A DNA stretch of 18,073 nucleotides from a virus (IMGVR_UViG_2526164650_000010); one strand, 5' to 3'. Counted from the stretch's first letter, positions 1,699 to 18,073 are shown. Notes: a model not told the origin generated them from the sequence alone. Numbers and translations are program-made.

Positions 1699-1737
1699 CT
1701 TATTCTAAGCAACCGGGTAGCATCATACGGGGCAATT

Positions 1738-2150: not shown

Positions 2151-2161
2151 TGGATTTGCCC

Positions 2162-3067
2162 TTATATTTCCAGACATCTGTTATCACTTAACCCATTACA
2201 AGCCCGCTGCCGCAGATATTCCCGTGGCGAGCGATAACCCAGCGCACTATGCGGATGCCATTCGTTATAATGCTCGAACGCCTCTGCAAGGTTCTTTGCT
2301 GCCGTTAACCCGTCTGGTTTGGGCATGATACTGATGTAGTCACGCTTTATCGTTTTCACGAAGCTCTCTGCTATTCCGTTACTCTCCGGACTCCGCACCG
2401 CCGTGTTCTTCGGTTCAAGTCCCAACATCCGGGCGAACTGGCGTGTTTCATTAGCCCGGTAGCATGAACCATTATCCGTCAGCCACTCCACTGGAGACGA
2501 CGGAAGATCGTTGCCGAAGCGGCGTTCCACCGCTCCCAGCATGACGTCCTGTACTGTTTCACTGTTGAAGCCGCCGGTAGTCCCCGCCCAGTGCAGTGCC
2601 TCACGATCACAGCAGTCCAGCGCGAACGTGACACGCAGTCTCTCTCCGTTATCACAGCAGAACTCGAACCCGTCAGAGCACCATCGCTGATTGCTTTCTT
2701 TCACGGCCACTCTGCCTGTATGTGCCCGTTTCGATGGCGGTACAGCAGGTTTTCGCTCAAGCAACAGCGCATTCTGGCGCATGAGCCGGTAAACACGTTT
2801 GGCATTGATCGCAGGCATACCATCAAGTTCTGCCTGTCTGCGAAGCAGCGCCCATACCCGACGATAACCATACGTGGGCAGCTCTCCGATAACATGGTGT
2901 ATACGGAGAAGCACATCCGTATCATCAGTGTGACGACTGCGGCGGCCATCCATCCAGTCATCGGTTCGTCTGAGAATGACGTGCAACTGCGCACGCGACA
3001 CCCGGAGACAACGGCTGACTAAGCTTACTCCCCATCCCCGGGCAATAAGGGCGCGTGCGCTATCCAC
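2162..3067 (-). CDS. insD: IS2 transposase OrfB (InsD), 301 aa
   Basis: 301-aa ORF with DDE-type integrase core; overlaps upstream orfA as in IS3-family -1 frameshift arrangement. Confidence 0.9.
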
Positions 3068-3387
3068 TTTTTTGCCCGTCCATATTCAACGGCTTCTTTG
3101 AGGAGTTCATTTTCCATCGTTTTCTTGCCGAGCAGGCGCTGGAGTTCTTTAATCTGCTTCATGGCGGCAGCAAGTTCAGAGGCAGGAACAACCTGTTCTC
3201 CGGCGGCCACAGCAGTAAGACTTCCTTCCTGGTATTGCTTACGCCAGAGAAATAACTGGCTGGCTGCTACACCATGTTGCCGGGCAACGAGGGAGACCGT
3301 CATCCCCGGTTCAAAGCTCTGCTGAACAATTGCGATCTTTTCCTGTGTGGTACGCCGTCTGCGTTTCTCCGGCCCTAAGACATCAAT
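3025..3387 (-). CDS. insC: IS2 OrfA (InsC) HTH protein, about 121 aa
   Basis: Translation ...[43 protein letters not shown]...; the codon at the expected initiator position reads ATT here, and the open frame extends upstream to a GTG at 3435. Confidence 0.75.
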
Positions 3388-3486
3388 AATCTGTTCTCCA
3401 ATGACAAGTCTAAAAACTGGTATTAAGACTATCACTTAAATAAGTGATACTGGTTGTCTGGAGATTCAGGGGGCCAGTCTAGATGC

Positions 3487-4222
3487 CAACACAAAGGCAA
3501 CTAATAAAGATACAGATAAAGATCTAAAAACAGATCTAACCCATCCCAAACCCTTCCCTTCCGGAAGGGAGTTTCGGGATTTTGTGGCTGGAGTGCTTGA
3601 GGGGAGATTATCTGGCGGTACTGCAGCGGAATTTTGTAATTCTGCGGTGGTTGCGTTGCAGGCTGCTGGCCTGGATGTCTGTCGTGAGTATCCGGTGCCA
3701 GAGCGTGGTGACGGTTGCGGAGGGCGGATTGATATCGTCGTGACTGACAGGAACGGTGTCCGGTGTGGGATCGAGCTTGACCGAAATTCTCCGCGACAGA
3801 AATCACTGCTCAAAATCGGTGCTGTTGAAACCGGGATATGTGTCTTGCGGCGCAGTGATATCGCAAGGCACACCGAGCAGGGAATTCTGGTTATCGGTGG
3901 GGCTGTTCGCCAGAAAAAATTTGACCCGTTGTCAGTTGATCTGCCCGACTGGTTGTCAGAAACACTCTGGCATGAGTGGGTCCAGTTCAGGCAGGCATTG
4001 CGAAAACCGATTCGAACGGAGCTGGGCGCTAACGGGGCGATACGGGAACTGGAAAAATTCCGTCAGCAGGGTTTTACACCTGAGCAGGTGATTCGACACA
4101 GCATCGCCAATGAATACCAGGGTCTGTTCGCGCCGAAAGGTGTTCGGCCTGAGACGTTGCTCCGACAGGTTAACACCGTCTCGTTGCCGGACAGTGCGAT
4201 CCCGCCAGGCTTCAGGGGGTAA
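3487..4222 (+). pseudogene. Phage replication protein (YdaU-like), 3' portion
   Basis: Open in the same frame as 1738..2150 once IS2 and one TSD copy are removed (no stop between 3488 and 4222); joined length about 383 aa. Confidence 0.6.
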
Positions 4223-4228
4223 CAGACC

Positions 4229-4975
4229 ATGAAAAATATTGCGACAGGAGGCGTTCTGGAGCGTATCCGCAGACTGACCCCACCACATGTAACCGCCCCA
4301 TTCAGAACGGTTGCGGAGTGGCGCGAGTGGCAACTTGCTGAAGGCCAGAAACGTTGCGAGGAGATCAACCGCCTGAATCGTCAGTTGCGGGTGGAAAAAA
4401 TCCTGAACCGCTCCGGCATCCAGCCGTTGCACCGGAAGTGTTCGCTTGCGAATTACCGGGCGCAGAACGACGGTCAGCGACATGCACTGAGTCAGGCGAA
4501 ATCCATAGCTGACGAACTGATGACAGGCTGTACGAATTTTGTGTTCAGCGGTAAGCCCGGCACCGGAAAAAATCATCTTGCAGCCGCGATTGGCAACCGG
4601 CTGATGGCGAAGGGGCGTAGCGTGATTATCGTCACCGTGTCCGATGTCATGAGCGTGTTGCATGAGAGCTACGACAACGGCAAATCCGGTGAAAAATTTT
4701 TACAGGAGCTTTGTGGTGTTGACCTGCTGGTCCTGGATGAAATTGGCATGCAGCGGGATACGAAAAACGAGCAGGTGGTACTGAACCAGATTGTTGATCG
4801 CCGGACGGCATCGTTACGCGGTGTGGGGATGCTGACAAATATTAACCATGCAGCGATGAATACACTTCTCGGCGAGCGGGTGATGGATCGCATGGTCATG
4901 AACGGCGGGCGCTGGGTGAATTTTAACTGGGAGAGCTGGCGTCCGAATGTTAGCCATTCGAGGGTTGTTAAGTAG
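4229..4975 (+). CDS. DnaC-like replicative helicase loader (AAA+ ATPase, YdaV-like)
   Basis: 248 aa; Walker A GKPGTGKNHLAAAIG and Walker B LLVLDEIG motifs; RBS upstream; sits directly after the YdaU-like gene as in lambdoid O/P-type modules. Confidence 0.8.
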   Translation: MKNIATGGVLERIRRLTPPHVTAPFRTVAEWREWQLAEGQKRCEEINRLNRQLRVEKILNRSGIQPLHRKCSLANYRAQNDGQRHALSQAKSIADELMTGCTNFVFSGKPGTGKNHLAAAIGNRLMAKGRSVIIVTVSDVMSVLHESYDNGKSGEKFLQELCGVDLLVLDEIGMQRDTKNEQVVLNQIVDRRTASLRGVGMLTNINHAAMNTLLGERVMDRMVMNGGRWVNFNWESWRPNVSHSRVVK

Positions 4976-4989
4976 TTTCAGGAGGATTT

Positions 4990-5412
4990 ATGGCGAAACC
5001 TTTTACTCCCGAACAGCGGGAAGAACTGAAGACGCGAATTGTGGAACTCGTGCATCAGGACGGTCGGGTCACGATTCGGCAGTTGTCCGATGAAACAGGT
5101 ATCAGTCGTGCGTCTGTCGGTCGCTTATGCATAGAACTGGTCGCAAGTGGTGATGTATATAATTCTGGCTACGGCTTATTCCCGTCTGAACAGGCTCGCA
5201 AGGACTGGCAAAGCGCCCGCAAAAAACTCTCGAGAGTAAAGGTGAGGAAACCGGTTGTTGTTGATCCGGACCTTATCTGGTCATTACCTGACGGAGAAAT
5301 ACGCCGCTACGACAGGCGCCTGAATATAATCTGTCGCGAGTGCCGGAAGAGCGAAGCTATGCAGCGTGTACTGGCTTTCTATCAGGGTAATTTTCAGGAG
5401 GCGATACTGTGA
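4990..5412 (+). CDS. Hypothetical phage protein (YdaW-like)
   Basis: 140-aa ORF with strong AGGAGG RBS 8 nt upstream of ATG; syntenic with the replication module. Confidence 0.5.
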   Translation: MAKPFTPEQREELKTRIVELVHQDGRVTIRQLSDETGISRASVGRLCIELVASGDVYNSGYGLFPSEQARKDWQSARKKLSRVKVRKPVVVDPDLIWSLPDGEIRRYDRRLNIICRECRKSEAMQRVLAFYQGNFQEAIL

Positions 5413-5826
5413 ATGAAATTAGCTATCAGGCTTCAATTACCGCTGGCATTCGCATCAAAGGAGAGGAGCATGGAAATAAAACCAGAAGATGAGTTAAGCA
5501 ATATCGTTTTATTTCCGATAAAAGAGGATGACCCTCGTAATCAGGTTAATTTTCTTTATAAGCCATCGGAAAGACCATATTGCCATCACGCCTCTGTACG
5601 GGTTGACGAAAAAGAGCGTCAGGTCCGCTGTAAAATCTGCGGTGCGGTTGTGGAGCCGTTTGACTGGATGCTCTCTGTGGCAAAAAGAGAAACCAGACTG
5701 GCAGATGATGTAAGGCTATTGCGCCAGGAGGAACAGGAAAGGCGGAGAAATATAGAAAAGCTGATACAGATTGAGCGTAACGCGAAAGCGCGGATACGCA
5801 GGGCGACAAAATCCAGAACTGAATAA
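5413..5826 (+). CDS. Hypothetical protein with CxxH...CxxC zinc-ribbon-like motif and basic coiled-coil C-terminus
   Basis: ORF abuts previous stop; alternative start at 5470 (MEIKPEDE) has a better-spaced AGGAG RBS; cysteine/histidine pairs CHHAS...CKICG. Confidence 0.5.
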   Translation: MKLAIRLQLPLAFASKERSMEIKPEDELSNIVLFPIKEDDPRNQVNFLYKPSERPYCHHASVRVDEKERQVRCKICGAVVEPFDWMLSVAKRETRLADDVRLLRQEEQERRRNIEKLIQIERNAKARIRRATKSRTE

Positions 5827-5918
5827 TTAAATTTAGCACTGTTAAAAATTTAATCCTTAACCGGAGGGATTTCTGCACCCTCAAATCATCAGGAGACCGC
5901 CCGAAAGGGCGGTAATGA

Positions 5919-6137
5919 ATGGTTACATTATTTAGAAAAAAATATCCGCGAAAGAGTAGAACAACAGAATTCCTGTTTCTCATTCTGTTTATCGTGTTGA
6001 TGACACCGATATCCCCGCAAATTTTTGTCTGGATAATCGGAAAAATAATTGAGCCAGTTATTGAATTGTATAACGACGTGGTATGGGCGTCATTCAACAC
6101 ACTGCACAATAAAATTAATCCGTATAAGGAAAGCTGA
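5919..6137 (+). CDS. Possible small membrane protein (72 aa)
   Basis: Hydrophobic stretch FLFLILFIVLMTPISPQIFVWIIG; weak RBS; could be non-coding spacer. Confidence 0.2.
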   Translation: MVTLFRKKYPRKSRTTEFLFLILFIVLMTPISPQIFVWIIGKIIEPVIELYNDVVWASFNTLHNKINPYKES

Positions 6138-6138
6138 T

Positions 6139-6504
6139 ATGGCACTGACGAAAAAACAACGTGCAGAACTGCGCATGAAGTTCGGTGGTCGCTGCGCTTA
6201 TTGCGGCTGCGAACTTGGCGAAAAGTGGCATGCAGACCATGTAAAACCGGTCATTCGTTTTGATGGAAATATGCTTCACCAGGAACGTGACGATATATCC
6301 AACATGGTACCAGAATGCCACCCATGCAATCTGCACAAGCATTGCAGTAGCCTGGAAGATTATCGACGAATTATCAGTGATGGTCGTCGTGAATTCCTTG
6401 CGTCCGGGAAAGGCAAAGCGCTGGTTCGTATGGGATTGGTTGAAATGAAATCTGACCCGGTTGTGTTCTGGTTTGAAAAATATCAAGAAGGGGCTACGGC
6501 ATGA
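6139..6504 (+). CDS. HNH endonuclease family protein
   Basis: Start MALTKKQRAELR with AAGGAAA RBS; paired Cys motifs CAYCGC...HADH...CHPCN...H typical of HNH zinc-finger nucleases. The track ORF 6049..6504 is an N-terminally over-extended version. Confidence 0.7.
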   Translation: MALTKKQRAELRMKFGGRCAYCGCELGEKWHADHVKPVIRFDGNMLHQERDDISNMVPECHPCNLHKHCSSLEDYRRIISDGRREFLASGKGKALVRMGLVEMKSDPVVFWFEKYQEGATA

Positions 6505-7166
6505 CTACTATTACCAAAGAGCGACTGCAATGGCTGGCTAACATTTCTGGCCGCGATGATATTGACGATATAGACGGCGGTGAAATTCGTGAACTGGCGC
6601 TTATCGCTCTGGCATCACTGGAAGCAGAGCCTGTAGCGGAATGCATTGTTGAAGATGGGGGCATGTGTATTGATGGGTTCGGTGAGTATGTGGGTCACTC
6701 GCTGCCTGATGGAATGCATGAGCTTTATGCTGCCCCGCGAATGCGACAACCTGATGGATGGAAAGCCGTAGCTGTAGCGTGGAAGGTGACGTTTACTCAA
6801 GTTGACCAGGAATCTAATACGTTCACTGCTATATATTTTTACAAAGCGGAAGTTGAGCGTTGGGTACGACTGCATAAAGCATGTGATTTTCGGGCAGATA
6901 TAACACCGCTTTACGCAGCGCCGGCAGTGCCGGTTGCAGTAAACGACGACATGGCTTACGCATTCCATCACGCACTGTCAGATTCATCGCTTGGCTCTGA
7001 TGAAATCGAAGAAATTAAAACCGGTTTGCGTGCTGCCTTTGCCAACGTCACTATCCAACCAGAGCCGATAGTGCCGGATGAAATCGGGCCAAACGATAGT
7101 AATACGTTTGATTATGTTGATGGCTGGAACGCCTGCCGCGCTGCCATGCTTAAGGGAGATAAATAA
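6501..7166 (+). CDS. Hypothetical phage protein (221 aa)
   Basis: ORF overlapping the neighbouring stop/start codons (operon-like packing); acidic N-terminus; no motif I can assign. Confidence 0.55.
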   Translation: MTTITKERLQWLANISGRDDIDDIDGGEIRELALIALASLEAEPVAECIVEDGGMCIDGFGEYVGHSLPDGMHELYAAPRMRQPDGWKAVAVAWKVTFTQVDQESNTFTAIYFYKAEVERWVRLHKACDFRADITPLYAAPAVPVAVNDDMAYAFHHALSDSSLGSDEIEEIKTGLRAAFANVTIQPEPIVPDEIGPNDSNTFDYVDGWNACRAAMLKGDK

Positions 7167-7531
7167 TGATTAATCGAACCAAACTGGAGCACATTCTCGA
7201 ATATGCCAGGCAGCAGAAATGTATTGGGCAACTTTGTAAAATTCCACCAGGAGATATGGTTGAAATCGTGGAAATGGCCATGCGTAAGGCTGGCAACTCT
7301 CCGGTAACTCTGGCTGGCTGGATAAGCTGTAGTGATGCAGTTCCTGCTGAATATTGCGATGTGATTCTTCTCGATGATCTCGGGAATGTATTCCCCGGTT
7401 CCTGGGATAAGGTTTTTTGCCCCACTCGTGGCGGGAATAAGATGGCTTTTGTGGACAAAGACGGCGTTGAAGTAGAGAGCTCAACTCACTGGATGCCGCT
7501 ACCGGAACCACCGCAGGAGGTGAATCAATGA
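7166..7531 (+). CDS. Hypothetical phage protein, DUF551-like C-terminus (HWMPLPEPP)
   Basis: 121-aa ORF; the C-terminal W-x-PLP-x-PP motif is recalled from prophage DUF551 proteins; stop overlaps next start (ATGA). Confidence 0.55.
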   Translation: MINRTKLEHILEYARQQKCIGQLCKIPPGDMVEIVEMAMRKAGNSPVTLAGWISCSDAVPAEYCDVILLDDLGNVFPGSWDKVFCPTRGGNKMAFVDKDGVEVESSTHWMPLPEPPQEVNQ

Positions 7532-7611
7532 CCTGGCCTGAGGCATTCACCACGGTAGGAATTGCGATGGCGGTGGCGCTGGTGGTGTATTCGATTTGCC
7601 GTTGGGGTTAA
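7528..7611 (+). CDS. Small hydrophobic peptide (27 aa, single predicted TM helix)
   Basis: MTWPEAFTTVGIAMAVALVVYSICRWG; ATGA overlap with the upstream gene suggests translational coupling; immediately followed by a strong terminator. Confidence 0.4.
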   Translation: MTWPEAFTTVGIAMAVALVVYSICRWG

Positions 7612-7620
7612 CAAACAAAA

Positions 7621-7647
7621 ACCCCGGATTGATGGTCCGGGGTTTTT
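7621..7647. terminator. Rho-independent terminator (8-bp GC-rich stem plus T-run), probably bidirectional
   Basis: ACCCCGGA-ttgatgg-TCCGGGGT followed by TTTTT; A-run on the 5' side gives a U-run on the opposite strand. Confidence 0.7.
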
Positions 7648-7869
7648 GAAGGAAACAAAACAGAAACAGCAATTGCCGTTACCTGTTGTTACCATGGCAA
7701 GTAAACGTATCTCAGGCGAGCGCATTGCGCCGTTCTGACGCAGATAAATTAGCCTGGATAGAAGGTGCTGGCAATAAAAAATAGCGTTTTCTTATCGGTA
7801 TCGGTAAGATTGCTGCGGGTGCTTGAGGCTGTCTGCCTCGGGCATGCCACTGTAAGGCAGACAGAGAAA

Positions 7870-7940
7870 AGCCCCAGTTAACATTACGCGTCCTGCAAGA
7901 CGCTTAACATTAATCTGAGGCCCAATCTATGTCTCACAAA
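7870..7940 (-). ncRNA. Candidate Sok-like antisense RNA overlapping the mok start
   Basis: Minus-strand TTGCCT-17nt-TAACCT (7972..7944) would start transcription near 7937, antisense to the mok initiation region; a minus-strand hairpin GCGTC-ttgcag-GACGC lies downstream. Weak promoter match; hypothesis only. Confidence 0.2.
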
Positions 7941-8141
7941 TGTAGGTTAGCCTCTTACGTGCCGAAAGGCAAGGAGAAGCAGGCTATGAAGCAGCAAAAG
8001 GCGATGTTAATCGCCCTGATCGTCATCTGTTTAACCGTCATAGTGACGGCACTGGTAACGAGGAAAGACCTCTGCGAGGTACGAATCCGAACCGGCCAGA
8101 CGGAGGTCGCTGTCTTCACAGCTTACGAACCTGAGGAGTAA
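7929..8141 (+). CDS. mok-like reading frame (in-frame N-terminal extension of hok, 70 aa)
   Basis: ATG at 7929 opens a frame that contains the whole Hok peptide, as in chromosomal mok/hok loci. Confidence 0.45.
   Translation: MSHKCRLASYVPKGKEKQAMKQQKAMLIALIVICLTVIVTALVTRKDLCEVRIRTGQTEVAVFTAYEPEE
7986..8141 (+). CDS. hokD: Hok/Gef-family membrane toxin, HokD (RelF)-like, 51 aa
   Basis: MKQQKAMLIALIVICLTVIVTALVTRKDLCEVRIRTGQTEVAVFTAYEPEE: hydrophobic TM segment followed by the conserved TRKxLCE motif of Hok proteins. Confidence 0.85.
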   Translation: MKQQKAMLIALIVICLTVIVTALVTRKDLCEVRIRTGQTEVAVFTAYEPEE

Positions 8142-8210
8142 GAGACCAGGCGGGGGAGAAATCCCTCGCCACCTCTCATGTGTCAGGCATCCTCAACGCA
8201 CCCGCACTAA

Positions 8211-8231
8211 ACCCGCTTCGGCGGGTTTTTT
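8211..8231 (+). terminator. Rho-independent terminator downstream of hok
   Basis: ACCCGC-ttcg-GCGGGT hairpin followed by TTTTTT. Confidence 0.7.
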
Positions 8232-8376
8232 GTTGCGTGCTGAATACGCAGGGTGAAAAATAACCATATATTTGATTATATACACAACAAAAATAAAAGT
8301 CATTGTACTTGCACATTAAACAATCAAATATACGGCGTGAAATAAATATTTATCAGATTAATATTTTTGTCTCTAT

Positions 8377-8628
8377 GTGGATATAACCGTTTGTACTTAT
8401 AAACCTGGGGGCATCGTGGAAAAAATAAAGAAACTATTTAGTAGCAAATACGCAGTCATACGTCGTGATGACCTGTCAGTTATAGTCGAAATGGATTACT
8501 TCCCTGAAACCCCAAAATCAATAATGTATCGTAATGGTCGAAAGGCAATTTTTTTACCGATGAGGGTAAGTGACATTATGGGAAATGATAAACTGCTGGA
8601 TGAATTGCGAGTCAGAGCATCCTGTTAG
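8377..8628 (+). CDS. Small phage protein, Rem-like (83 aa)
   Basis: 83-aa ORF directly downstream of hok, as rem is in the K-12 Qin prophage (from memory); GTG start in this frame; its stop codon TAG lies inside the left IS1 target duplication. Confidence 0.55.
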   Translation: MDITVCTYKPGGIVEKIKKLFSSKYAVIRRDDLSVIVEMDYFPETPKSIMYRNGRKAIFLPMRVSDIMGNDKLLDELRVRASC

Positions 8629-8645
8629 TAGGTAATGACTCCAAC

Positions 8646-9136
8646 TTACTGATAGTGTTTTATGTTCAGATAATGCCCGATGACCTTGTCATGCAGCTCC
8701 ACCGATTTTGAGAACGACAGTGACTTCCGTCCCAGCCTTGCCAGATGTTGTCTCAGCTTCAGATTATGTCGCTCAATGCGCTGAGTGTAACGCTTGCTGA
8801 TAACGTGCAGCTTTCCCTTCAGGCGTGATTCATACAGCGGCCAGCCATCCGTCATCCATACCACGACCTCAAACTCAGAAGACGCTCCAGTGTGGCCAGA
8901 GTGCGTTCACCGAAGACGTGCGCCACAACCGTCCTCCGTATCCTGTCATACGCGTAAAACAGCCAGCGCTGACGTGATTTAGCACCGACGTAGCCCCAAT
9001 GTTCGTCCATTTCAGCGCAGACAATCACATCACTGCCCGGTTGTATGCGCGAGGTTACCGACTGCGGCCTGAGTTTTTTAAGTGACGTAAAACCGTGTTG
9101 AGGCCAACGCCCATAATGCGTGCACTGGCGCGACAT
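8646..9136 (-). pseudogene. insB: IS1 insB, frameshifted by 13-bp deletion
   Basis: InsB homology split into two overlapping ORFs (8852..9136 and 8646..8864); the break coincides with the 13-bp deletion near 8873/8874. Confidence 0.8.
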
Positions 9137-9330
9137 CCGACGCCATTCATGGCCATATCAATGATTTTCTGGTGCGTACCGGGCTGAGAGGCGGTGTAAG
9201 TGAACTGTAGTTGCCATGTTTTACGGCAATGAGAGCAGAGATAGCGCTGATGTCCGGCAGTGCTTTTGCCGTTACGCACCACGCCTTCAGTAGCGGAGCA
9301 GGAAGGACATCTGATGGAAATGGAAGCCAC
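9055..9330 (-). CDS. insA: IS1 InsA (91 aa)
   Basis: [42 protein letters not shown]... zinc-finger/HTH InsA. Confidence 0.9.
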
Positions 9331-9463
9331 GCAAGCACCTTAAAATCACCATCATACACTAAATCAGTAAGTTGGCAGCATTACCCTGTTAGTATTGGCA
9401 TTAATTCTGGTATACTACATAACGGGCTGAACACCCATTCTACTGCGCCAGCGGAGAACTACG

Positions 9464-10063
9464 ATGGCGCATATACAACTGGTCAAACAAACCTCTTCCG
9501 GATTACTTCTCCCGGCGACGCCGGAGAGTTGCGATTTTTTGCATCAAATCAAAATAGGTGAGTGGATACACGCAGACTTTAAGCGTGTGCGTAACTACGC
9601 ATTCCACAAGCGTTTTTTCAAACTCCTGCAACTGGGATTTGATTACTGGACTCCGGTCGGTGGGGCGATCACGCCTCGCGAACGAAAACTGGTATCAGGC
9701 TTCGTTGATTACCTGTGCGAATCAGTAGGTCGGGAACACACTCCAGCCCTGAGTGATGCCGCAGAGCAATACCTTAATACAGTTGCGACATGCAGAACCC
9801 GGGATACGGCATTGCTAAAGTCGTTTGACGCTTTCCGCGAGTGGGTAACCATTCAGGCCGGATTTTACACCGAGCATATTTATCCTGATGGTAGTCGTGG
9901 GCGCAGGGCAAAATCTATCGCATTTGCGAACATGGACGAAACCGAGTTTCAGCAGGTTTATAAATCTGTACTGAATGTGCTGTGGAACTGGATCCTGTTC
10001 CGTAAATTTTCCTCTCCGGAGGAAGTCGAAAATGTGGCCGCGCAGTTACTGGAGTTTGCGTAA
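9464..10063 (+). CDS. Phage nin-region protein of unknown function (199 aa)
   Basis: ORF with GGAGAA RBS; positioned between rem-like and YbcO-like genes as in Qin/DLP12-type prophages. Confidence 0.6.
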   Translation: MAHIQLVKQTSSGLLLPATPESCDFLHQIKIGEWIHADFKRVRNYAFHKRFFKLLQLGFDYWTPVGGAITPRERKLVSGFVDYLCESVGREHTPALSDAAEQYLNTVATCRTRDTALLKSFDAFREWVTIQAGFYTEHIYPDGSRGRRAKSIAFANMDETEFQQVYKSVLNVLWNWILFRKFSSPEEVENVAAQLLEFA

Positions 10064-10353
10064 TGGTGGATTTACGTAAAGCGGCGCGGGGGCAGATGTG
10101 CACCGTCAGAATTCCTGGCTACTGCAATCACAATCCCGAAACTTCTGTGCTGGCGCATTACAGGCTGGCGGGGACGTGCGGAACAGCGACAAAACCACAC
10201 GATATGCAGGCAGCGATTGCCTGTAGCTCATGCCACGATTTAATCGACGGGCGGGTAAAAACCAGCGATTACACCAAAGAAGAATTACGCCTGATGCATG
10301 CAGAAGGTGTTTTTCGCACACAAGAAATCTGGAGAAAGGAAGGTTATTTATGA
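10063..10353 (+). CDS. YbcO-like (DUF1364) Cys/His-rich putative nuclease
   Basis: 96 aa; MVDLRKAARGQMCTVRIPGYCNHNPETSVLAH...ACSSCHD resembles my recollection of DLP12 YbcO; ATGA overlap with upstream and downstream genes. Confidence 0.6.
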   Translation: MVDLRKAARGQMCTVRIPGYCNHNPETSVLAHYRLAGTCGTATKPHDMQAAIACSSCHDLIDGRVKTSDYTKEELRLMHAEGVFRTQEIWRKEGYL

Positions 10354-10904
10354 TTTACCCAACAAATACAGGCAAAAGCGGGGAACACCTTCGTCTCACC
10401 ACGCTGGAAAGTGTCTGGATTCAGGGAAAACTGCGCATGTGGGGGCGCTGGTCGTATATTGGCGGCGGTAAGACGGGAAATATGTTTAACCAGTTGCTGG
10501 CATCCAAAAAATTGACGAAAACAGCCGTCAATGAAGCCCTGCGCAGGATGAAAAAAGCGGGAATAGAGAAACCTGAGCTGGAAGCGTTTTTGCGAGAGAT
10601 GATCAATGGCAAGCAAAAGACCTGGCTGGCGCATTGTACTGATGCAGAGGCGTTATGTATTGATAGAGTCATAAGTGAGGTGCTGGCAGAGCATCCTGGA
10701 TTGATTAGTGTCCTCCGGCAACGGTATGAAGGGCGGGGGATGACTAAGCGTAAAATGGCTGAATTGCTGAATGACGCACACCCTGAGTGGTGTTTCCGGA
10801 CGTGCTGCAGTCGGGTAGATGTATGGCTAAATCTTGCTGAATATATGCTCTATCTACCGATGCGTGATGCATTCTCTTCCGGGGATCTAAAAACCGTTTG
10901 TTGA
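10350..10904 (+). CDS. Putative late antiterminator Q-like protein (185 aa)
   Basis: Assigned mainly by position: last gene before a promoter plus short-transcript terminator pair, downstream of the nin-like genes. Start taken at ATG 10350 (overlaps YbcO-like stop) rather than the upstream-extended ORF 10230. Confidence 0.45.
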   Translation: MIYPTNTGKSGEHLRLTTLESVWIQGKLRMWGRWSYIGGGKTGNMFNQLLASKKLTKTAVNEALRRMKKAGIEKPELEAFLREMINGKQKTWLAHCTDAEALCIDRVISEVLAEHPGLISVLRQRYEGRGMTKRKMAELLNDAHPEWCFRTCCSRVDVWLNLAEYMLYLPMRDAFSSGDLKTVC

Positions 10905-10930
10905 CTCAATCTGTTATCCGGGGCTATATT
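10901..10930 (+). promoter_or_regulatory. Sigma70 promoter, PR'-like late promoter candidate
   Basis: TTGACT (10901..10906) - 18 nt - TATATT (10925..10930), overlapping the stop codon of the Q-like gene. Confidence 0.4.
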
Positions 10931-10992
10931 CCTCACGCGCCAGCAAAATCTGGCGTCGGGATTGGCGTCCCGGATGTTTACGGAGCGATATG

Positions 10993-11013
10993 AGACGCGC
11001 CCGCGTCTTTTTT
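10993..11013 (+). terminator. Rho-independent terminator, tR'-like
   Basis: AGACGC-gccc-GCGTCT followed by a T-run, about 60-80 nt downstream of the candidate PR'. Confidence 0.6.
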
Positions 11014-11176
11014 CATATCGTTTGCACAGTCACATTCGCGATTTATGGCGGGCTGTGTGGGGGAGCCGAAAGGCTCGCCGGTTTCCGTACCCGGTTACGC
11101 CAACCCTGCACAGTTCGCCACCAGTTCGATTGGCGTCGTCGGTGGCGATAATTTCCAAATGTACGGAGTTATCGTT

Positions 11177-11227
11177 ATGACCACTCAAATCTCTGTTGAA
11201 ACTCTCTCCCCGATCACCCATAACCAG
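11177..11227 (+). pseudogene. Phage antirepressor-like gene, 5' 17 codons, interrupted by IS600
   Basis: ATG with GGAG RBS, MTTQISVETLSPITHNQ, then IS600 terminal repeat at 11228; frame resumes at 12495. Confidence 0.45.
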
Positions 11228-11291
11228 TGAGGTAGCCTGAGTTTAACGGACACTCCTTCCTGAAATAGAATGGCATCAGAAGGAGCTAATA

Positions 11292-11594
11292 ATGAGCAGA
11301 AAAACCCAACGTTACTCTAAAGAGTTCAAAGCCGAAGCTGTCAGAACGGTTCTTGAAAATCAACTTTCGATCAGTGAAGGCGCTTCCCGATTATCCCTTC
11401 CTGAAGGCACTTTAGGACAATGGGTTACCGCCGCCAGAAAAGGGCTCGGTACTCCTGGTTCCCGCACGGTGGCTGAACTGGAATCTGAAATTCTGCAACT
11501 GCGTAAGGCGTTAAATGAAGCTCGCCTTGAGCGAGATATATTAAAAAAAGCAACAGCGTATTTTGCACAGGAGTCGCTGAAAAATACGCGTTAA
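11292..11594 (+). CDS. IS600 OrfA (HTH protein, 100 aa)
   Basis: MSRKTQRYSKEFKAEAVRTVLENQLSISEGASRLSLPEGTLGQWV... with leucine-zipper-like C-terminus. Confidence 0.9.
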   Translation: MSRKTQRYSKEFKAEAVRTVLENQLSISEGASRLSLPEGTLGQWVTAARKGLGTPGSRTVAELESEILQLRKALNEARLERDILKKATAYFAQESLKNTR

Positions 11595-11629
11595 TCGAAC
11601 AATGGCGACAACAATTTCCCATTGAAGCG

Positions 11630-12448
11630 ATGTGTCAGGTATTTGGTGTATCCAGGAGCGGTTATTACAACTGGGTACAGCATGAACCCTCAGACAGAAA
11701 ACAAAGTGATGAGCGGCTAAAACTGGAGATTAAGGTGGCACATATCCGCACTCGCGAAACATATGGAACCCGGCGGCTCCAGACGGAGCTGGCAGAGAAT
11801 GGCATCATCGTTGGTCGTGACCGACTGGCACGTCTTCGTAAGGAGCTGAGGCTACGCTGTAAGCAGAAACGCAAGTTCAGAGCGACTACGAACCCGAACC
11901 ACAATCTGCCAGTTGCGCCAAATCTGCTGAACCAGACGTTCGCTCCTACAGCACCAAATCAGGTCTGGGTGGCGGACCTGACGTATGTTGCCACACAGGA
12001 GGGATGGTTGTACCTCGCTGGCATCAAAGATGTTTATACGTGTGAAATTGTCGGCTACGCCATGGGAGAGCGCATGACAAAAGAGCTGACAGGTAAAGCC
12101 CTGTTTATGGCGCTCAGGAGCCAGCGCCCACCTGCCGGGCTAATCCACCACTCTGATCGAGGTTCACAGTACTGCGCATACGATTACCGGGTCATACAGG
12201 AGCAGTCTGGTCTGAAAACATCAATGTCGCGTAAAGGTAACTGTTACGACAACGCTCCGATGGAAAGCTTCTGGGGAACGCTGAAAAATGAGAGCCTGAG
12301 CCACTATCGTTTTAATAACCGGGATGAAGCCATCTCAGTAATACGGGAATACATTGAGATTTTCTACAATCGTCAGCGTCGTCACTCTCGTCTGGGGAAT
12401 ATCTCCCCGGCAGCCTTCAGGGAAAAATATCATCAGATGGCTGCTTAA
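11630..12448 (+). CDS. IS600 OrfB (DDE transposase catalytic domain, 272 aa from ATG)
   Basis: The -1 frame relative to orfA is open from 11531; DDE-type motifs (WVADLTY..., HSDRGSQY..., NCYDNAPMESFWGTLK). Confidence 0.85.
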   Translation: MCQVFGVSRSGYYNWVQHEPSDRKQSDERLKLEIKVAHIRTRETYGTRRLQTELAENGIIVGRDRLARLRKELRLRCKQKRKFRATTNPNHNLPVAPNLLNQTFAPTAPNQVWVADLTYVATQEGWLYLAGIKDVYTCEIVGYAMGERMTKELTGKALFMALRSQRPPAGLIHHSDRGSQYCAYDYRVIQEQSGLKTSMSRKGNCYDNAPMESFWGTLKNESLSHYRFNNRDEAISVIREYIEIFYNRQRRHSRLGNISPAAFREKYHQMAA

Positions 12449-12494
12449 AAAAAGAACAAATGGTAGTGTCCGCTATTGCCAGTACACCTCACAG

Positions 12495-13001
12495 ATTCCT
12501 GTTATTACCACCGAACTTTTGGCGCAGCTTTACGGCACTGAGCCGGTGCGTATTCGCCAGAATCATCATGAGAACAAAGTACGCTTCGTTGAAGGGAAAC
12601 ACTTTTTCAAAGTTGTTGGTAATGACCTTAAAGAATTGCGGGTCGCTTTAAACTACTCACAAAATCCAGTTTCACCCAAAGCCCGCTCCCTCATCCTCTG
12701 GACAGAACGAGGCGCAGCACGCCACGGCAAAATGCTCGAAACCGATCAGGCGTGGGATGTGTTCGAAAAACTGGAAGACTGCTATTTCAGTCAAAGGGAT
12801 CCGTCAACGCCAGTTTCATGCCAGAAAAGTTACGACACGCGAGTTCTCTGTTATCAGAGAGGCGGTGTCACTGTTTCCACAATTCAGTTACGGGATGATG
12901 ATATTGTTATTTCCCTTGAGTCATGGCTGGAACTGGCGAGAGCCAATGGTTGGTTTGTTGTTCGCAGAGATAAACTGGTGGAAAGGTTGATGCAGCTTTA
13001 A
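12495..13001 (+). pseudogene. Phage antirepressor-like gene, 3' portion (169 codons)
   Basis: In frame with 11177..11227 after removing IS600 and one CAG copy; the track ORF 12354..13001 begins inside the IS. Confidence 0.5.
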
Positions 13002-13098
13002 AAAAGTTCTTGCATTTTTGCACATAAACTGCTTCAATTACGGTAAGCTTCGCAAAGCTGTATCGCGAGGCGAATAGCAGACATGGACACTTGAAAGA

Positions 13099-13121
13099 AC
13101 CCGCTTTATGCGGGTTTTTTT
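13099..13121 (+). terminator. Rho-independent terminator
   Basis: ACCCGC-tttat-GCGGG followed by TTTTTTT. Confidence 0.65.
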
Positions 13122-13171
13122 GTGCCTGAAAAATGGCACAGGGCGTTAAACGCGCTGGTGGTCAGATGAGT

Positions 13172-13200
13172 TTGCAGATGTGATGACATATGGTTATTAT
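13172..13200 (+). promoter_or_regulatory. Candidate sigma70 promoter for the tRNA cluster
   Basis: TTGCAG - 17 nt - TATTAT ending 9 nt upstream of the first tRNA. Confidence 0.3.
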
Positions 13201-13209
13201 TCTGCCTCC

Positions 13210-13286
13210 GGCCCTTTAGCTCAGTTGGTCAGAGCGAGCGACTCATAATCGCCAGGTCGCTGGTTCAAGTCCAGCAAGGGCCACCA
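13210..13286 (+). tRNA. tRNA with CAU anticodon, most like tRNA-Ile2 (lysidine type); tRNA-Met not excluded
   Basis: Hand-folded cloverleaf: acceptor GGCCCTT/AAGGGCC, anticodon loop CTCATAA, T-arm GCTGG-TTCAAGT-CCAGC, 3' CCA encoded; the anticodon stem-loop and T-arm match my recollection of E. coli ileX. Confidence 0.75.
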
Positions 13287-13287
13287 A

Positions 13288-13364
13288 CCACCACTAGCTC
13301 ATCCGGATAGAGCATCAACCTTCTAAGTTGACGGTGCGAGGTTCGAGTCCTCGGTGGTGGGCCA
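13288..13364 (+). tRNA. tRNA-Arg (anticodon UCU)
   Basis: Acceptor CCACCAC/GTGGTGG (unusual 5' C), D-arm GCTC...GAGC, anticodon stem TCAAC/GTTGA with loop CTTCTAA, T-loop TTCGAGT, CCA encoded; 1-nt spacer from the previous tRNA. Confidence 0.75.
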
Positions 13365-13366
13365 GC

Positions 13367-13442
<76 letters not shown>

Positions 13443-13445
13443 TAT

Positions 13446-13520
<75 letters not shown>

Positions 13521-13634: not shown

Positions 13635-15239
13635 ATGATTCAGCTATCCAGTAGTCACAAACTTCCAGCAGTCTACTATCTCTACCAGCGTAACGGCGTC
13701 TACTACTTCCGTCTTAGGGTCAGACAATCAAACAATGATAGAATGACCTCAATATCATTACGGACCAAGGATAGACGCACCGCTATGGCTTACTCAAGGC
13801 ACATAAAGGCAGCACTCAAGGCAATACACGCAGACAGACCCAACGCTACCTATGAGGAAATGAGGGAACACCTTAAGGACATCGCTGAGTGTGAACTGTC
13901 TATGGGCCGTTCAGATCTCTTTGAGCCTGACATGAGGGATATCTACCGGGACCAATACGGAGAACTTGGTGAGAGCCTTACCGATGCTCTGGCTAGTGAG
14001 CCGCTAAGCATTGACCAGCATCGTTACATCAATGAGGCCCTGAAGGTGCTAAAAGCCTGTATGAGGCGTATCGAAGCGGGAGACAGTCAGCTTCTGATAG
14101 ATTACGTCGATCTTTTTAATGATATTGATAGGCAAGATAACCAAGCAGACTCTGTGTCCCTATCTGTTAATGCTCCAGAAGTAAAACCAGAAGTTACGCC
14201 TAGCATTACCATAGCGAGCCTCTTTGAGCAATACGAAGCGGAGAACTATCAGAACTGGAAGCCTGCAACCTTAAGGGAAAACAAGGCGTCACACGCTGCG
14301 TTAATCGAAATATTCGACCATCTGGGTCTCAATGCAGACGCTAACAGGGCTGACATGCTTAGGGTCCGTGATGTGCTCCAGCAGTTACCTAGGAACCGTA
14401 AGCAGCGCTTCAAGGATGTCCCACTTGCTGACCTGTTGAGCCGTGAAGATAAGACAGATTGTCTGGATGTCGTTACCATCAACAACAAGTATCTTATTAA
14501 GATGGCTGCTGTCTTTAGGTGGGCTGTGCGCAATGACTTGATTAAAAAGAACATGACTGAGGGTCTGGAGCTTAAAGTCCCTCAGCGTAAAGCCTCAGGG
14601 GCCCGTAACGCCTTCTCTACGGAGCAGGTGGGGCAACTACTGGTCGCAGCTAAGGCATACTCTCAGAAGACCTCTGGTAAGCCGTATCATTATTATGTTA
14701 CCGCCTTGGCTGCTATCACTGGGGCGAGACTCAATGAAATAGCCCAACTACAGGTCAAAGACGTCAGGACCACTGAGGCGGGAACCGTTTATATTCATAT
14801 CAATGAAGACGATAGTAGTCTACCCGGTAAGAGCATCAAGAACGCTCATAGTGACCGCTGTGTGCCTCTGGTCGATGGGGCCTATGGTTTTATATTGGCT
14901 GACTTTATGGCGCTTGTAGAGACCCGTAGAGGCGCTGACGGTGATGACGCTATGGTGTTCGATGGTCTGCGTCTCATGAAGAACGGTTACGGTGAGCAGG
15001 TGAGTAAATGGTTTAATCGGACGTTGTTGCCTAAAGTCCTCGTAGACCGTAGCGGCTTAGCGTTTCACTCGTTTAGACATACAGTTGCGGCCCAGTTAAA
15101 ACAACATGGGGTCGAGTTGGCGTATGCACAGGCGATCATGGGGCATAGTTCAGGGTCTATTACGTACGACCGTTATGCTAAAGAGGTCGAGGTTGATAGG
15201 CTGGTCAATGTGATGGCTGATGTTTATAAGGAGACCTAG
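13635..15239 (+). CDS. Tyrosine site-specific recombinase (phage-type integrase), 534 aa
   Basis: C-terminal catalytic signature: R (TGARLNEIAQL), H-x-x-R (HSFRHTVA), H and Y nucleophile (MGHSSGSITYDRYAK); N-terminal arm-type start (YQRNGVYYFRLRV); begins 114 bp after tRNA-Gly. Confidence 0.9.
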   Translation: MIQLSSSHKLPAVYYLYQRNGVYYFRLRVRQSNNDRMTSISLRTKDRRTAMAYSRHIKAALKAIHADRPNATYEEMREHLKDIAECELSMGRSDLFEPDMRDIYRDQYGELGESLTDALASEPLSIDQHRYINEALKVLKACMRRIEAGDSQLLIDYVDLFNDIDRQDNQADSVSLSVNAPEVKPEVTPSITIASLFEQYEAENYQNWKPATLRENKASHAALIEIFDHLGLNADANRADMLRVRDVLQQLPRNRKQRFKDVPLADLLSREDKTDCLDVVTINNKYLIKMAAVFRWAVRNDLIKKNMTEGLELKVPQRKASGARNAFSTEQVGQLLVAAKAYSQKTSGKPYHYYVTALAAITGARLNEIAQLQVKDVRTTEAGTVYIHINEDDSSLPGKSIKNAHSDRCVPLVDGAYGFILADFMALVETRRGADGDDAMVFDGLRLMKNGYGEQVSKWFNRTLLPKVLVDRSGLAFHSFRHTVAAQLKQHGVELAYAQAIMGHSSGSITYDRYAKEVEVDRLVNVMADVYKET

Positions 15240-15327
15240 AGGAGACCATAGTCTAGGATGACACTTACTACAGACCTGTGTGGTCATGTTTTTGACTCAT
15301 AGTTTTCTCTACTTGTCAAGGGATAAT

Positions 15328-15350
15328 TAATACGACTCACTATAGGGAGA
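15328..15350 (+). promoter_or_regulatory. Phage T7 RNA polymerase promoter, perfect 23/23 match to class III consensus
   Basis: TAATACGACTCACTATAGGGAGA; predicted +1 G at 15345. Confidence 0.75.
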
Positions 15351-15448
15351 AGGGACACAAAAAGTTTTCTCTTCTAGGATGACACTTACTACAGACCTGT
15401 GCGGTCATGTTTTTGACTCATAGTTTTCTCTGCTTGTCAAGGGGTAAT

Positions 15449-15471
15449 TAATGCGACTCACTATAGGGAGA
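15449..15471 (+). promoter_or_regulatory. Phage T7 RNA polymerase promoter, 22/23 match (A to G at -13)
   Basis: TAATGCGACTCACTATAGGGAGA; predicted +1 G at 15466. Confidence 0.65.
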
Positions 15472-15568
15472 AGGGACACAAAAAGTTTTCTCTTCTAGGA
15501 TGACACTTACTACAGACCTGTGTGGTCATGTTTTTGACTCATGGTTTTCTCTACTTGTCAAGGATAAT

Positions 15569-15591
15569 TAATACGACTCACTATAGGGAGA
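15569..15591 (+). promoter_or_regulatory. Phage T7 RNA polymerase promoter, perfect 23/23 match
   Basis: TAATACGACTCACTATAGGGAGA; predicted +1 G at 15586. Confidence 0.75.
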
Positions 15592-15780
15592 AGGGACACA
15601 AAAAGTTTTCTCTTCTAGGACAACTAACCGTAACTTATCGCATCCTTTCAGGGGCGGGATGACCAATTACAGACACCAAGCGTTCTACTTAAAGTGAATG
15701 CTTCCTGTGTGCTCTGGGTCAGTCGATAAGTGAATAGCAATAAGACACAATCATCTTAATTATGGTCTCTAGTCCCTACA

Positions 15781-15960
15781 GGGGCTTAACTTAAAGTTAA
15801 CTTAAAGACACAATTAAAGATTAACTTATAGTATTACTTAAAGTTAACTTAAAGACACAATTAGAGATTAACTTTAAGTATTAAATAAAAGATTTAATTA
15901 AAGACCAATTAAAGATTAACTCTAAGGGAATACCTTAAGGGGTGATGATATTTATAATAA
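15781..15960. repeat. AT-rich iteron region (ACTTAAAG / ATTAAAGA motifs; two about 42-bp direct repeats 47 bp apart plus a degenerate third)
   Basis: ACTTAAAGTTAACTTAAAGACACAATTA at 15789..15816 and again at 15836..15863; related ATTAAAGACCAATTAAAGATTAAC at 15891..15920; no ORF. Confidence 0.7.
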
Positions 15961-15996
15961 TCAATCACCAAACCTATAGGTCTTCTCTTGAAGTGG

Positions 15997-16837
<841 letters not shown>

Positions 16838-16892
16838 AGGATAATGCGCTCTGAGTTTCCCGATTATCGAGAACTGTTCAGGGAGTCTGACA

Positions 16893-17165
16893 TCAAGAGC
16901 GCGGTAGCCTTTTTAATATTTCATTCTCCATTTCAATGCGTTGTAGCTTTTTCCTGAGCTCACGGATTTCAATTTGTTCCGGGGTAATGGGGGAGGCTTT
17001 TGGTGTTTTGCCCTGACGCTCATCACGCAGTTGTTTGACCCATCTTGTCATTGTGGAAAGGCCAACATCCATAGCTTTGGCGGCATCTGCCACCGTGTAT
17101 TTCTGGTCAACAACCAGTTGAGCGGATTCGCGTTTAAACTCTGCGCTAAAATTTCTTTTTTTCAT
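16893..17165 (-). CDS. IS911 OrfA with altered C-terminus
   Basis: [46 protein letters not shown]...; the slippery run reads ATTAAAAAGG (five A before G), which is one A short of an A-AAA-AAG heptamer. Confidence 0.75.
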
Positions 17166-17237
17166 TGGAGCACCTGTGTTGTTCTGAGGTGAGCATATCA
17201 CCTCTGTTCAGGTGGCCAAATTCAGTGTGCCACTTCA

Positions 17238-17320
17238 CAGTTGAAATTGCTGAGCTGACAGGCAAGGAGCACCGAAATGTCCTTCGTGATATTCGTAAGA
17301 TGCTCGAAGAACTTAACGCG
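17238..17320 (+). pseudogene. Fragment of a phage Rha-family regulatory protein gene
   Basis: Translates VEIAELTGKEHRNVLRDIRKMLEELNA, the conserved N-terminal Rha motif; bounded by IS911 (17237) and IS1 (17321). Confidence 0.5.
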
Positions 17321-17375
17321 GGTAATGCTGCCAACTTACTGATTTAGTGTATGATGGTGATTTTAAGGTGCTTGC

Positions 17376-17651
17376 GTGGCTTCCATTTCCATCAGATGTC
17401 CTTCCTGCTCCGCTACTGAAGGCGTGGTGCGTAACGGCAAAAGCACTGCCGGACATCAGCGCTATCTCTGCTCTCATTGCCGTAAAACATGGCAACTACA
17501 GTTCACTTACACCGCCTCTCAGCCCGGTACGCACCAGAAAATCATTGATATGGCCATGAATGGCGTCGGATGTCGTGCCAGTGCACGCATTATGGGCGTT
17601 GGCCTCAACACGGTTTTACGTCACTTAAAAAACTCAGGCCGCAGTCGGTAA
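17376..17651 (+). CDS. insA: IS1 InsA (91 aa)
   Basis: Identical protein to copy A InsA. Confidence 0.9.
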
Positions 17652-18073
17652 CCTCGCGCATACAACCGGGCAGTGATGTGATTGTCTGCGCTGAAATGGA
17701 CGAACATTGGGGCTACGTCGGTGCTAAATCACGTCAGCGCTGGCTGTTTTACGCGTATGACAGGATACGGAGGACGGTTGTGGCGCACGTCTTCGGTGAA
17801 CGCACTCTGGCCACACTGGAGCGTCTTCTGAGCCTGCTGTCGGCCTTTGAGGTCGTGGTATGGATGACGGATGGCTGTCCGCTGTATGAATCACGCCTGA
17901 AGGGAAAGCTGCACGTTATCAGCAAGCGTTACACTCAGCGCATTGAGCGACATAATCTGAATCTGAGACAACATCTGGCAAGGCTGGTACGGAAGTCACT
18001 GTCGTTCTCAAAATCGGTGGAGCTGCATGACAAGGTCATCGGGCATTATCTGAACATAAAACACTATCAGTAA
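17570..18073 (+). CDS. insB: IS1 InsB (167 aa), intact frame
   Basis: Continuous frame through the region deleted in copy A; stop codon is the last triplet of the window. Confidence 0.85.

Follow-up and report, generated by a model that had tools for sequence, protein, structure and literature searches.

What are three consensus promoters of bacteriophage T7 doing in tandem in a stretch of DNA that holds no polymerase gene, its longest open reading frame being that of a 534-residue integrase? The stretch, an 18,073-nucleotide sequence filed as viral (IMGVR_UViG_2526164650_000010) and referred to below as the window, is very probably part of the chromosome of Shigella flexneri, since its integrase is 100% identical to an S. 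flexneri integrase cluster of 769 member sequences. An earlier reading made from the sequence alone (the sequence-only reading) knew of no described chromosomal element with this layout. On that point it was wrong, as islands with tandem T7-like promoters had been reported from enterobacterial genomes by Chen and Schneider (Nucleic Acids Res 34:1133, 2006; PMC1380254). A review cites that work in the context of the sit island region of Shigella and E. coli.

The array is the promoter module of this known kind of element, catalogued in 2006 and later named "T7 islands", and the locus as a whole is almost certainly the remnant of one. It shares with T7 islands the tandem T7-group promoters, the lack of a polymerase gene, and a place in a small prophage-like enterobacterial island. 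T7 islands have at least two tandem promoters in a few hundred bp, and the window has three of T7-group type within 264 bp, together with an integrase and an attL-like tRNA-Gly end, attR being absent. The difference is that the promoters of T7 islands transcribe phage-related genes, which are missing from the window and present in its relatives. The catalogued islands reportedly comprise 12 clusters from nine enteropathogens, are 4 to 13 kb long with 2 to 3 promoters within 150 to 620 bp, and are said to carry 2 to 5 phage-related genes of unassigned function. A literature search returned the term "T7 island" in only one later paper and found no experimental follow-up.

The promoter array and its island in Shigella

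The array occupies positions 15252 to 15620 of the + strand and consists of three tandem 121-bp units (Tandem Repeats Finder: period 121, 3.1 copies, 95% matches), the first of which begins 12 bp after the stop codon of the integrase gene. Each unit ends in a T7 class III consensus promoter, and all three fire rightward on the + strand. The 23-mer TAATACGACTCACTATAGGGAGA is found without mismatch at 15328 to 15350 and at 15569 to 15591, while the copy between them, at 15449 to 15471, has a single A>G mismatch at -13 (TAATGCGACT...). The predicted +1 positions, taken as the start of the 23-mer plus 17, are 15345, 15466, and 15586. Matches to the 23-mer were absent from all 200 dinucleotide shuffles of the window, and the perfect copies are identical to the T7 promoters phi6.5, 9, 10, 13, 17, and OR as read from NC_001604. 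The 23-mer search and Tandem Repeats Finder thus bear out the sequence-only reading in full as to the three consensus promoters, their coordinates, their rightward direction, and their start sites. The scattered differences that it reported between the repeat units are likewise seen on reading the sequence, and an open reading frame scan agrees that the transcribed part of the units contains no convincing reading frame.

The variation between units is concentrated outside the promoters. Among 10 distinct units from 8 loci of the E. coli/Shigella subtype, only 1 of the 23 promoter columns is variable, compared with 41 of the 82 upstream columns, and the first ~17 transcribed bases show no variation. 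By this comparison of columns, the promoter 23-mer is under purifying selection. The number of units is 1, 2, or 3 depending on the strain. Scans for sigma-70 promoters and terminators showed no enrichment, no good sigma-70 promoters are present near the array, and there is no excess of them near the operons of related islands. No Rfam family matched within the array, and the idea that the 121-nt unit is a structured RNA was rejected, as its transcript folds no better than shuffled sequence (z 0.33). Two further candidates were set aside: the T7 class II pause signal ATCTGTT, which occurs within the integrase gene only and not after the operon, and T7 primase sites in the units, of which there are 6 on the minus strand (16/kb versus 4 to 7/kb in the integrase gene), too few to be of use.

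The left end of the island is formed by a tRNA-Gly(UCC) gene at 13446 to 13520 on the + strand (identified by ARAGORN and Rfam), which is the integration site on the attL side and the last member of a prophage-borne cluster of four tRNA genes, Met-Arg-Thr-Gly. Its 3' end, TTCGATTCCCGCTGCCCGCTCCA at 13498 to 13520, has 3 mismatches to TTCGATTCCCTTCGCCCGCTCCA, the 23-bp att core found on either side of glyU islands in E. coli, Klebsiella, and Proteus; given these differences, integration in Shigella took place at a secondary site, one that belongs to a prophage. The DNA directly after the tRNA gene matches DNA downstream of glyU in the E. coli FT130 locus (L001; the L numbers denote the loci compared here). 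Chromosomal glyU is the site of all other family members examined, and the window copy lies inside a prophage instead. The tRNA cluster, within 13210 to 13520, comes after a Q-antiterminator-like gene and belongs to the remnant of a lambdoid prophage riddled with IS elements. Directly following the tRNA gene is the tyrosine integrase of the island (13635 to 15239, + strand), 534 residues long and apparently intact, with a Pfam Phage_integrase match (E 2e-17) and a DUF6538 domain.

On the right, the island is truncated by an IS3-family, IS911-like element at 15989 to 17237 on the - strand, recognized by its rve, HTH_21, and HTH_Tnp_1 domains and bounded by comparison with Shigella copies. An IS1 copy abuts it at 17238 to 18073 on the + strand (DDE_Tnp_IS1, E 3e-71). 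No second att core was found in the window; attR is missing because the IS911 and IS1 elements cut the island. The KilA-N-like gene found in E. coli copies is absent as well, and the promoters run into the IS element. The sequence-only reading had supposed that a downstream cargo was lost to an IS element, and the intact relatives, which bear a KilA-N-like gene and more, show what that cargo was. The Shigella copy is a decayed remnant in which the integrase, the three promoters, a leader, and an AT-rich region are left, the operon and attR having been removed. It could still respond to T7 polymerase but could no longer deliver a product, and is a dead end because its cargo is lost.

The two Shigella loci L022 and L023 retain about 140 bp of additional island DNA before IS1 (equivalent to L001 16827 to 16964), which is absent from the window. 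Shigella copies other than the window have one or three promoter units (L022, L023, and L024 compared with the window), and the IS911-like element of L022 is inverted relative to that of the window. By these differences in unit copy number and IS orientation, the Shigella locus is still rearranging. The window is heavily loaded with IS elements, at 436 to 1385, 2162 to 3067, 8631 to 9386, 11543 to 12491, 15989 to 17237, and 17238 to 18073; one IS3-family element is present as two inverted copies, and the others are a second IS3-family element, a pair of IS1 copies, and the IS911-like element. The prophage genes that they break include YdaU/DUF1376, a DnaC-like ATPase, DUF977, DUF1367, and a DUF1133/Q-like gene.

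Recurrence across Enterobacterales and promoter specificity

The 23-mer is the sequence present in every T7 expression vector, and one account of the array would be vector or expression-cassette DNA that contaminated the assembly or was engineered into it. The sequence-only reading had favored natural divergence over a cloning artifact, had named identity with a vector or cassette as one outcome that would overturn it, and had proposed comparisons with enterobacterial and phage genomes. Of 5426 complete E. coli chromosomes, 91 carry a 751-bp region covering the array, at 88 to 95% identity and unannotated every time; the isolates came from birds, pigs, humans, and water. In these genomes, the array lies at the edge of the ETT2 island, between a site-specific integrase gene adjoining tRNA-Gly (glyU) and, downstream in intact copies, a KilA-N-like gene. 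Direct 23-bp copies of the 3' end of the tRNA gene flank the element, which is 4.2 to 4.3 kb long. Against the artifact stand these diverged copies, which share one tRNA site in 91 wild E. coli genomes; the 72,556 plasmid records searched, in which the window region has no plasmid or vector match; the flanks of the array, which are island DNA; and the Klebsiella and Pectobacterium versions, which bear promoters of their own phages instead. The artifact is vanishingly improbable, and is already refuted by the recurrence, the plasmid search, and the host-specific promoters.

When the array was searched by BLAST against 50,697 phage genomes, it gave promoter-sized matches only, or none. The same search with the non-coding region of the Klebsiella island also returned promoter-sized matches or none. 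Neither search showed longer stretches of homology to the ends or pac regions of phages. A scan of IMG/VR for the island in viral contigs found only prophage calls from Shigella chromosomes and no virion DNA.

Integrase homologues of 65 to 97% identity are present throughout Enterobacterales, and 17 loci from other species were fetched through integrase homology. A tRNA-Gly(CCC) gene adjoins 11 of the 17. Complete elements of other species are 5.5 to 6.5 kb long, giving a range of 4.2 to 6.5 kb for the whole family. Intact islands are bounded by att repeats of 17 to 27 bp, and both repeats are present in 8 relatives. The complete relatives contain no open reading frame of polymerase size, and no replication initiator, terminase, portal, or excisionase is recognizable in the islands. 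A phmmer comparison of 12 island proteins with all T7 and K11 reading frames gave nothing below E 0.09, and island DNA beyond the promoters has no phage genome match by BLAST.

The placement of the promoters in these islands is highly regular. The core CACTATAGGGAGA, with up to 2 mismatches allowed, has 41 matches in 109 kb of island DNA and 3 in 210 kb of flanking DNA, and 40 of the 41 island matches are on the integrase strand, downstream of the integrase. In all intact relatives the promoters face genes (L001, L002, L004, L007, L010, L011, L018, and L030). The island of K. pneumoniae ATCC 13883 has two promoters identical to phi9, phi10, and phi13 of phage K11, one T7 consensus promoter, and a fourth type. 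A Pectobacterium island has an unusual promoter, with the core CACTATTGGGAGA, that is 100% identical over 28 nt to promoters of the Pectobacterium phages PP81, PP47, and PPWS4, in which these promoters are annotated and the match occurs at 10 places per genome. The Proteus-type promoter has no exact match in the phage collection. The upstream specificity region of the island promoters varies with the host and matches the local phages. The placement of the sites, their matching to phages, their conservation, and the lack of sigma-70 enrichment make it very likely that the polymerases of local T7-group phages recognize them as functional promoters, and there is good reason to expect that phage polymerases do use them. 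The earlier suggestion that the array stays silent until a T7-group polymerase arrives is plausible on two counts, the lack of good sigma-70 promoters nearby and the covariation of promoter type with the T7-like phages of the host.

Several repeats and additional promoters were seen in individual loci. In the Klebsiella locus L004, positions 9265 to 9841 hold promoters of at least two polymerase specificities (T7 and K11) plus a third type, AATTAGGTAG..., that has no matched phage. In L001, a 13-bp unit, GATGACCATAGGC, is repeated in tandem about 13 times between the integrase and the promoters at 15775 to 15930 and is followed at 15950 to 16010 by three CCTATGTGGTC repeats. The window has just one related copy. 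A second repeat cluster in L001, at 16615 to 16767, is made up of GCCCTGTA[TC]G (four copies) and AATCAATACG (three copies) and is deleted in the window. This cluster ends in a degenerate T7-like promoter, CAATACGACTTACTAATAGGAGA, with 18 of 23 matches, at the same position as a good second promoter in L030.

A conserved leader and a segment resembling T7 origins

Downstream of the last promoter, the window contains a conserved leader element at 15623 to 15745 (+ strand), delimited by block conservation and covariation. Two blocks within it are near-invariant, block A at 15635 to 15665 and block B at 15717 to 15740. Over its 31 nt, block A has 0 to 2 mismatches among Shigella, E. coli, Klebsiella, Rouxiella, and Edaphovirga, whose integrases are 81 to 89% identical. 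An 8-bp helix formed by 15633 to 15640 and 15724 to 15731 encloses an inner hairpin. The helix is 100% paired in 7 sequences, and its only two variable positions covary; compensatory changes are found in the inner hairpin too. The covariation score was reached by 2 of 500 shuffles and, coming from about 3 independent lineages, is modest evidence. Each sequence on its own folds to the same architecture, with z scores of -1.5 to -2.4. No Rfam family matches the element. A stretch of about 110 nt is near-invariant across genera (window 15623 to 15745, L002, L004, L006, L008, L020, L029, and L030), and its sequence would allow a role as leader RNA or processing site, or as a signal for replication or packaging.

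The leader is followed by an AT-rich segment of CTTAAAG-type repeats at 15781 to 15940 on the + strand, a candidate T7-type origin or iteron region marked by its composition and by Tandem Repeats Finder arrays at 15786 to 15921. The GC content at 15750 to 15949 is 18 to 28%. The motif [CT]TAAAG occurs in the segment about 40 to 44 times per kb, in a strand-specific manner, and 0.3 times per kb in the prophage part of the window (1 to 13400); in T7 it occurs at 28/kb in the left 500 bp versus about 1/kb in the genome bulk. An inverted repeat, GGGTGATGAT...ATCAATCACC, closes the non-coding module at 15940 to 15969, as seen on reading the sequence, and its position is conserved in L001, L002, L004, and L030. 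The leader, the CTTAAAG-type AT-rich repeats, and the inverted repeat are common to the subfamily whose integrases are at least 80% identical.

In T7, an origin of replication is made up of a promoter and an AT-rich region, and plasmids with such origins are reported by the Richardson and Hinkle laboratories to replicate upon infection. The best alignments of the window segment in the T7 genome are at 5912 to 6007 (phi1.1B) and 414 to 484 (phiOL), and in K11 at phiOR, phiOL, and phi1.05, all of them just downstream of origin-associated promoters. The scores for the T7 origin and for K11 OR, OL, and 1.05 were each reached in 0 of 500 dinucleotide shuffles. The window module resembles the primary (phi1.1A/1.1B) and secondary (phiOL, phiOR) origins of T7 in that phage promoters are followed by AT-rich DNA, in that the AT-rich segment aligns best there, and in the strand-specific [CT]TAAAG motif that they have in common. 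It differs in that its AT-rich DNA begins ~200 bp after the last start site rather than tens of bases, with a conserved structured element intervening. The promoters and the AT-rich segment fit a T7-type origin, one of the roles suggested by the sequence-only reading, without proving one, the support from sequence being real, if indirect. The resemblance rests on DNA that is rich in AT and in repeats, and the common short motif could be convergent.

Cargo, mobility, and possible ways of life

The genes that the promoters face are known from intact islands. In E. coli, the first gene of the operon encodes a KilA-N-like protein of 187 residues (Pfam E 6e-5; PHROG 129 E 2e-10), and after it comes the gene for either a 97-residue membrane protein or a 157-residue protein. 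The operons of the 6-kb islands encode a protein of the KilA-N/Ant, Rha, or Bro-N type, a 60- to 80-residue protein, a DUF6971 protein, and a protein of 326 to 402 residues that has homologues in Enterobacterales only. When the KilA-N-like and 402-residue proteins were searched against phages by tblastn, they gave weak matches to Ant-like proteins of Vibrio phages or none. Nothing was found for the 326- to 402-residue family by sequence searches of Pfam, PHROG, or PDB, and it is unlike the T7 and K11 capsid proteins in sequence. Its AlphaFold model is of moderate confidence (pLDDT 68.8), with a poor N-terminal third; nevertheless, the top 50 Foldseek matches are all HK97-fold capsid proteins or encapsulins, the best at E 3e-9. 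As judged from this model, the last gene of the 6-kb islands encodes the HK97 major-capsid fold. By fold comparison the gene lies at 11629 to 12837 in L004, 11901 to 12881 in L010, 11493 to 12590 in L018, and 3582 to 4718 in L030. There is no such gene in the window or in the 4.2-kb E. coli/Shigella subtype, and no terminase or portal accompanies it anywhere.

Several islands carry, between the integrase and the promoters, a match to PD-T7-4 (E 8e-99) that overlaps the island integrase gene (L004 8624 to 9256, L010 8616 to 9275, L011 8610 to 9254, and L029 1795 to 2433). PD-T7-4, which often overlaps an integrase gene (Vassallo 2022, PMC9519451), is now named RAZR and is an abortive-infection RNase activated by the portal rings of T7 and T3 (Nature 2026, PMC13017515). 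The four islands share with the published system both the overlap with an integrase gene and the target phages, T7 and T3. RAZR is absent from the window, and elsewhere it is cargo upstream of the promoters, outside the promoter module. The islands thus give a genomic home to a system earlier described only as often overlapping an integrase gene.

Evidence of mobility comes from a relative in a metagenome. A MEGAHIT contig of 6628 bp (L030) has an exact 141-bp terminal overlap and closes to a 6487-bp circle, in which the order is promoters, operon, capsid-like gene, integrase. The junction between the capsid-like gene and the integrase is also present in contigs from two other samples (L031 and L032), and all three contigs come from relatives of the window island. 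On assembly data, an excised or tandem form of the island exists in nature. The circular contig could stem from a tandem duplication, or from excision unrelated to phage infection. The att site of the L030 variant has no match to the glyU core. A hairpin plus U-run after the L030 capsid-like gene was not relied on, as the scanner made no terminator call.

We consider it probable that the array, leader, and AT-rich segment together control a satellite-like element that phage RNA polymerase switches on. A T7 island is a 4- to 6.5-kb element that integrates at tRNA-Gly by means of its own tyrosine integrase. Its tandem promoters copy the strongest ones (class III consensus) of whichever T7-group phages circulate in the host, and they point away from the integrase and toward a short operon. 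The module would be off because the host RNA polymerase ignores these promoters, and would be transcribed at late-gene strength when a T7-like phage makes its single-subunit polymerase. In intact relatives, the output would consist of a DNA-binding protein of the KilA-N/Ant-like kind, small proteins, and a DUF6971 protein, to which the 6-kb forms would add the HK97-fold protein. Acting in cis, the leader and the CTTAAAG repeats would most likely serve as a T7-type origin, possibly also as a processing or packaging site. The excised circle may be amplified by the phage replication machinery through this origin-like module, in which case the family would resemble a satellite or parasite that exploits virulent T7-like phages and sometimes brings along an anti-T7 defense (RAZR). 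As for the satellite steps themselves, replication and packaging, we put the chances slightly short of even. More tentative still is the fullest form of the proposal, in which T7 islands would be true satellites with a helper-promoter switch, a mimic of the helper origin plus leader RNA, a shell of their own HK97-fold protein, and RAZR as a shelter for their host; the shell protein of full-size islands would then serve to build or resize capsids for a genome of ~6.5 kb.

Defense, decoy, prophage remnant, and artifact are each less likely than the satellite-like island triggered by phage polymerase. The islands might be a pure abortive-infection or defense switch, whose promoters sense infection and drive a toxic or interfering product, such as the KilA-N-like protein, the small membrane protein, or a capsid-like decoy, so that the cell dies or phage assembly is spoiled while the island itself is never transferred. 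RAZR/PD-T7-4, an RNase with proven abortive-infection activity against T7/T3, is indeed found in some islands, the minimal E. coli islands have no more than the KilA-N-like protein plus the 97-residue membrane protein or the 157-residue protein, and the capsid-fold protein could be an assembly poison. However, RAZR lies upstream of the promoters with a promoter of its own, and is therefore cargo and not their output. A mobile element is indicated by the origin-like module, the intact integrase and att sites, the spread across genera (80 to 97% integrase identity), and the circular form. A switch of this kind by itself is unlikely, yet defense and satellite lifestyles are compatible and not mutually exclusive.

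It is far less probable that the array is a decoy which titrates away the T7 polymerase, or sets off futile origins, and so protects without any product. This would explain why promoters persist in Shigella after the loss of the cargo, where even decayed copies retain the promoters and the first 17 transcribed bases intact and the copy number goes from 1 to 3. The persistence can equally reflect recent decay, since IS insertions are typical of Shigella and other strains keep more of the island. Three chromosomal promoters against the 17 annotated promoters of T7 on many replicating genomes would be negligible unless the array were amplified, and the promoters of every intact relative face genes. 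The polymerase sink put forward by the sequence-only reading found no specific support. A remnant of a temperate T7-like prophage, from an integrase-bearing member of the Autographiviridae whose late-region promoters were left over, seems highly improbable. Integrase-bearing T7-like phages do exist, LUZ100 among them (PMC10134795), and the large islands have a capsid-fold gene. Nevertheless, the complete, att-bounded elements measure only 4.2 to 6.5 kb and keep one gene order across genera, they have no genes for RNA polymerase, DNA polymerase, portal, tail, or terminase, neither their proteins nor their DNA beyond the promoters resemble those of T7 or K11, and the 6.49-kb circle is a whole unit.

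If the satellite-like reading is the correct one, how would the islands compare with established satellites? The capsid-fold satellites, cf-PICI (EcCI2) and SaPIbov5 with its Ccm, are about 10 to 15 kb in length, and T7 islands are smaller at 4 to 6.5 kb. Unlike cf-PICI, the islands are without portal, terminase, protease, head-tail, repressor, primase, or replication genes, and the subtype in the window is without the capsid-like gene as well. Virulent T7-group phages are presumed to be the helpers, and induction is presumed to come from the helper RNA polymerase acting directly on the island promoters. PLE of Vibrio cholerae and PICMI of marine vibrios are similar in that they too are small, integrate, and react when a virulent phage infects. 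They have replication and regulatory proteins of their own and are induced through protein-protein interactions; to our knowledge, neither mimics promoters of a phage polymerase. A literature search for a T7 satellite found none, and we know of none for T7, the best-studied virulent phage. If true, the proposal would make T7 islands the first satellite family for T7-like phages and the first to be induced by promoter mimicry of a phage RNA polymerase.

The family would offer a directly testable case of a parasite or defense island wired to the polymerase of the phage itself. Intact copies are available in E. coli and in K. pneumoniae ATCC 13883, the window copy being without cargo. Strains that bear an island already have T7 promoters in place, and their behavior in T7-based expression or phage therapy may be unexpected. 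A paralogous integrase, 73% identical, is found at another site in E. coli ECMA0423 (L014) and S. flexneri SFBU1023 (L015), at positions 7001 to 8593, with no adjoining tRNA-Gly gene and one weak promoter-like match; from its sequence, this locus may be a second, more decayed island lineage of the same species.
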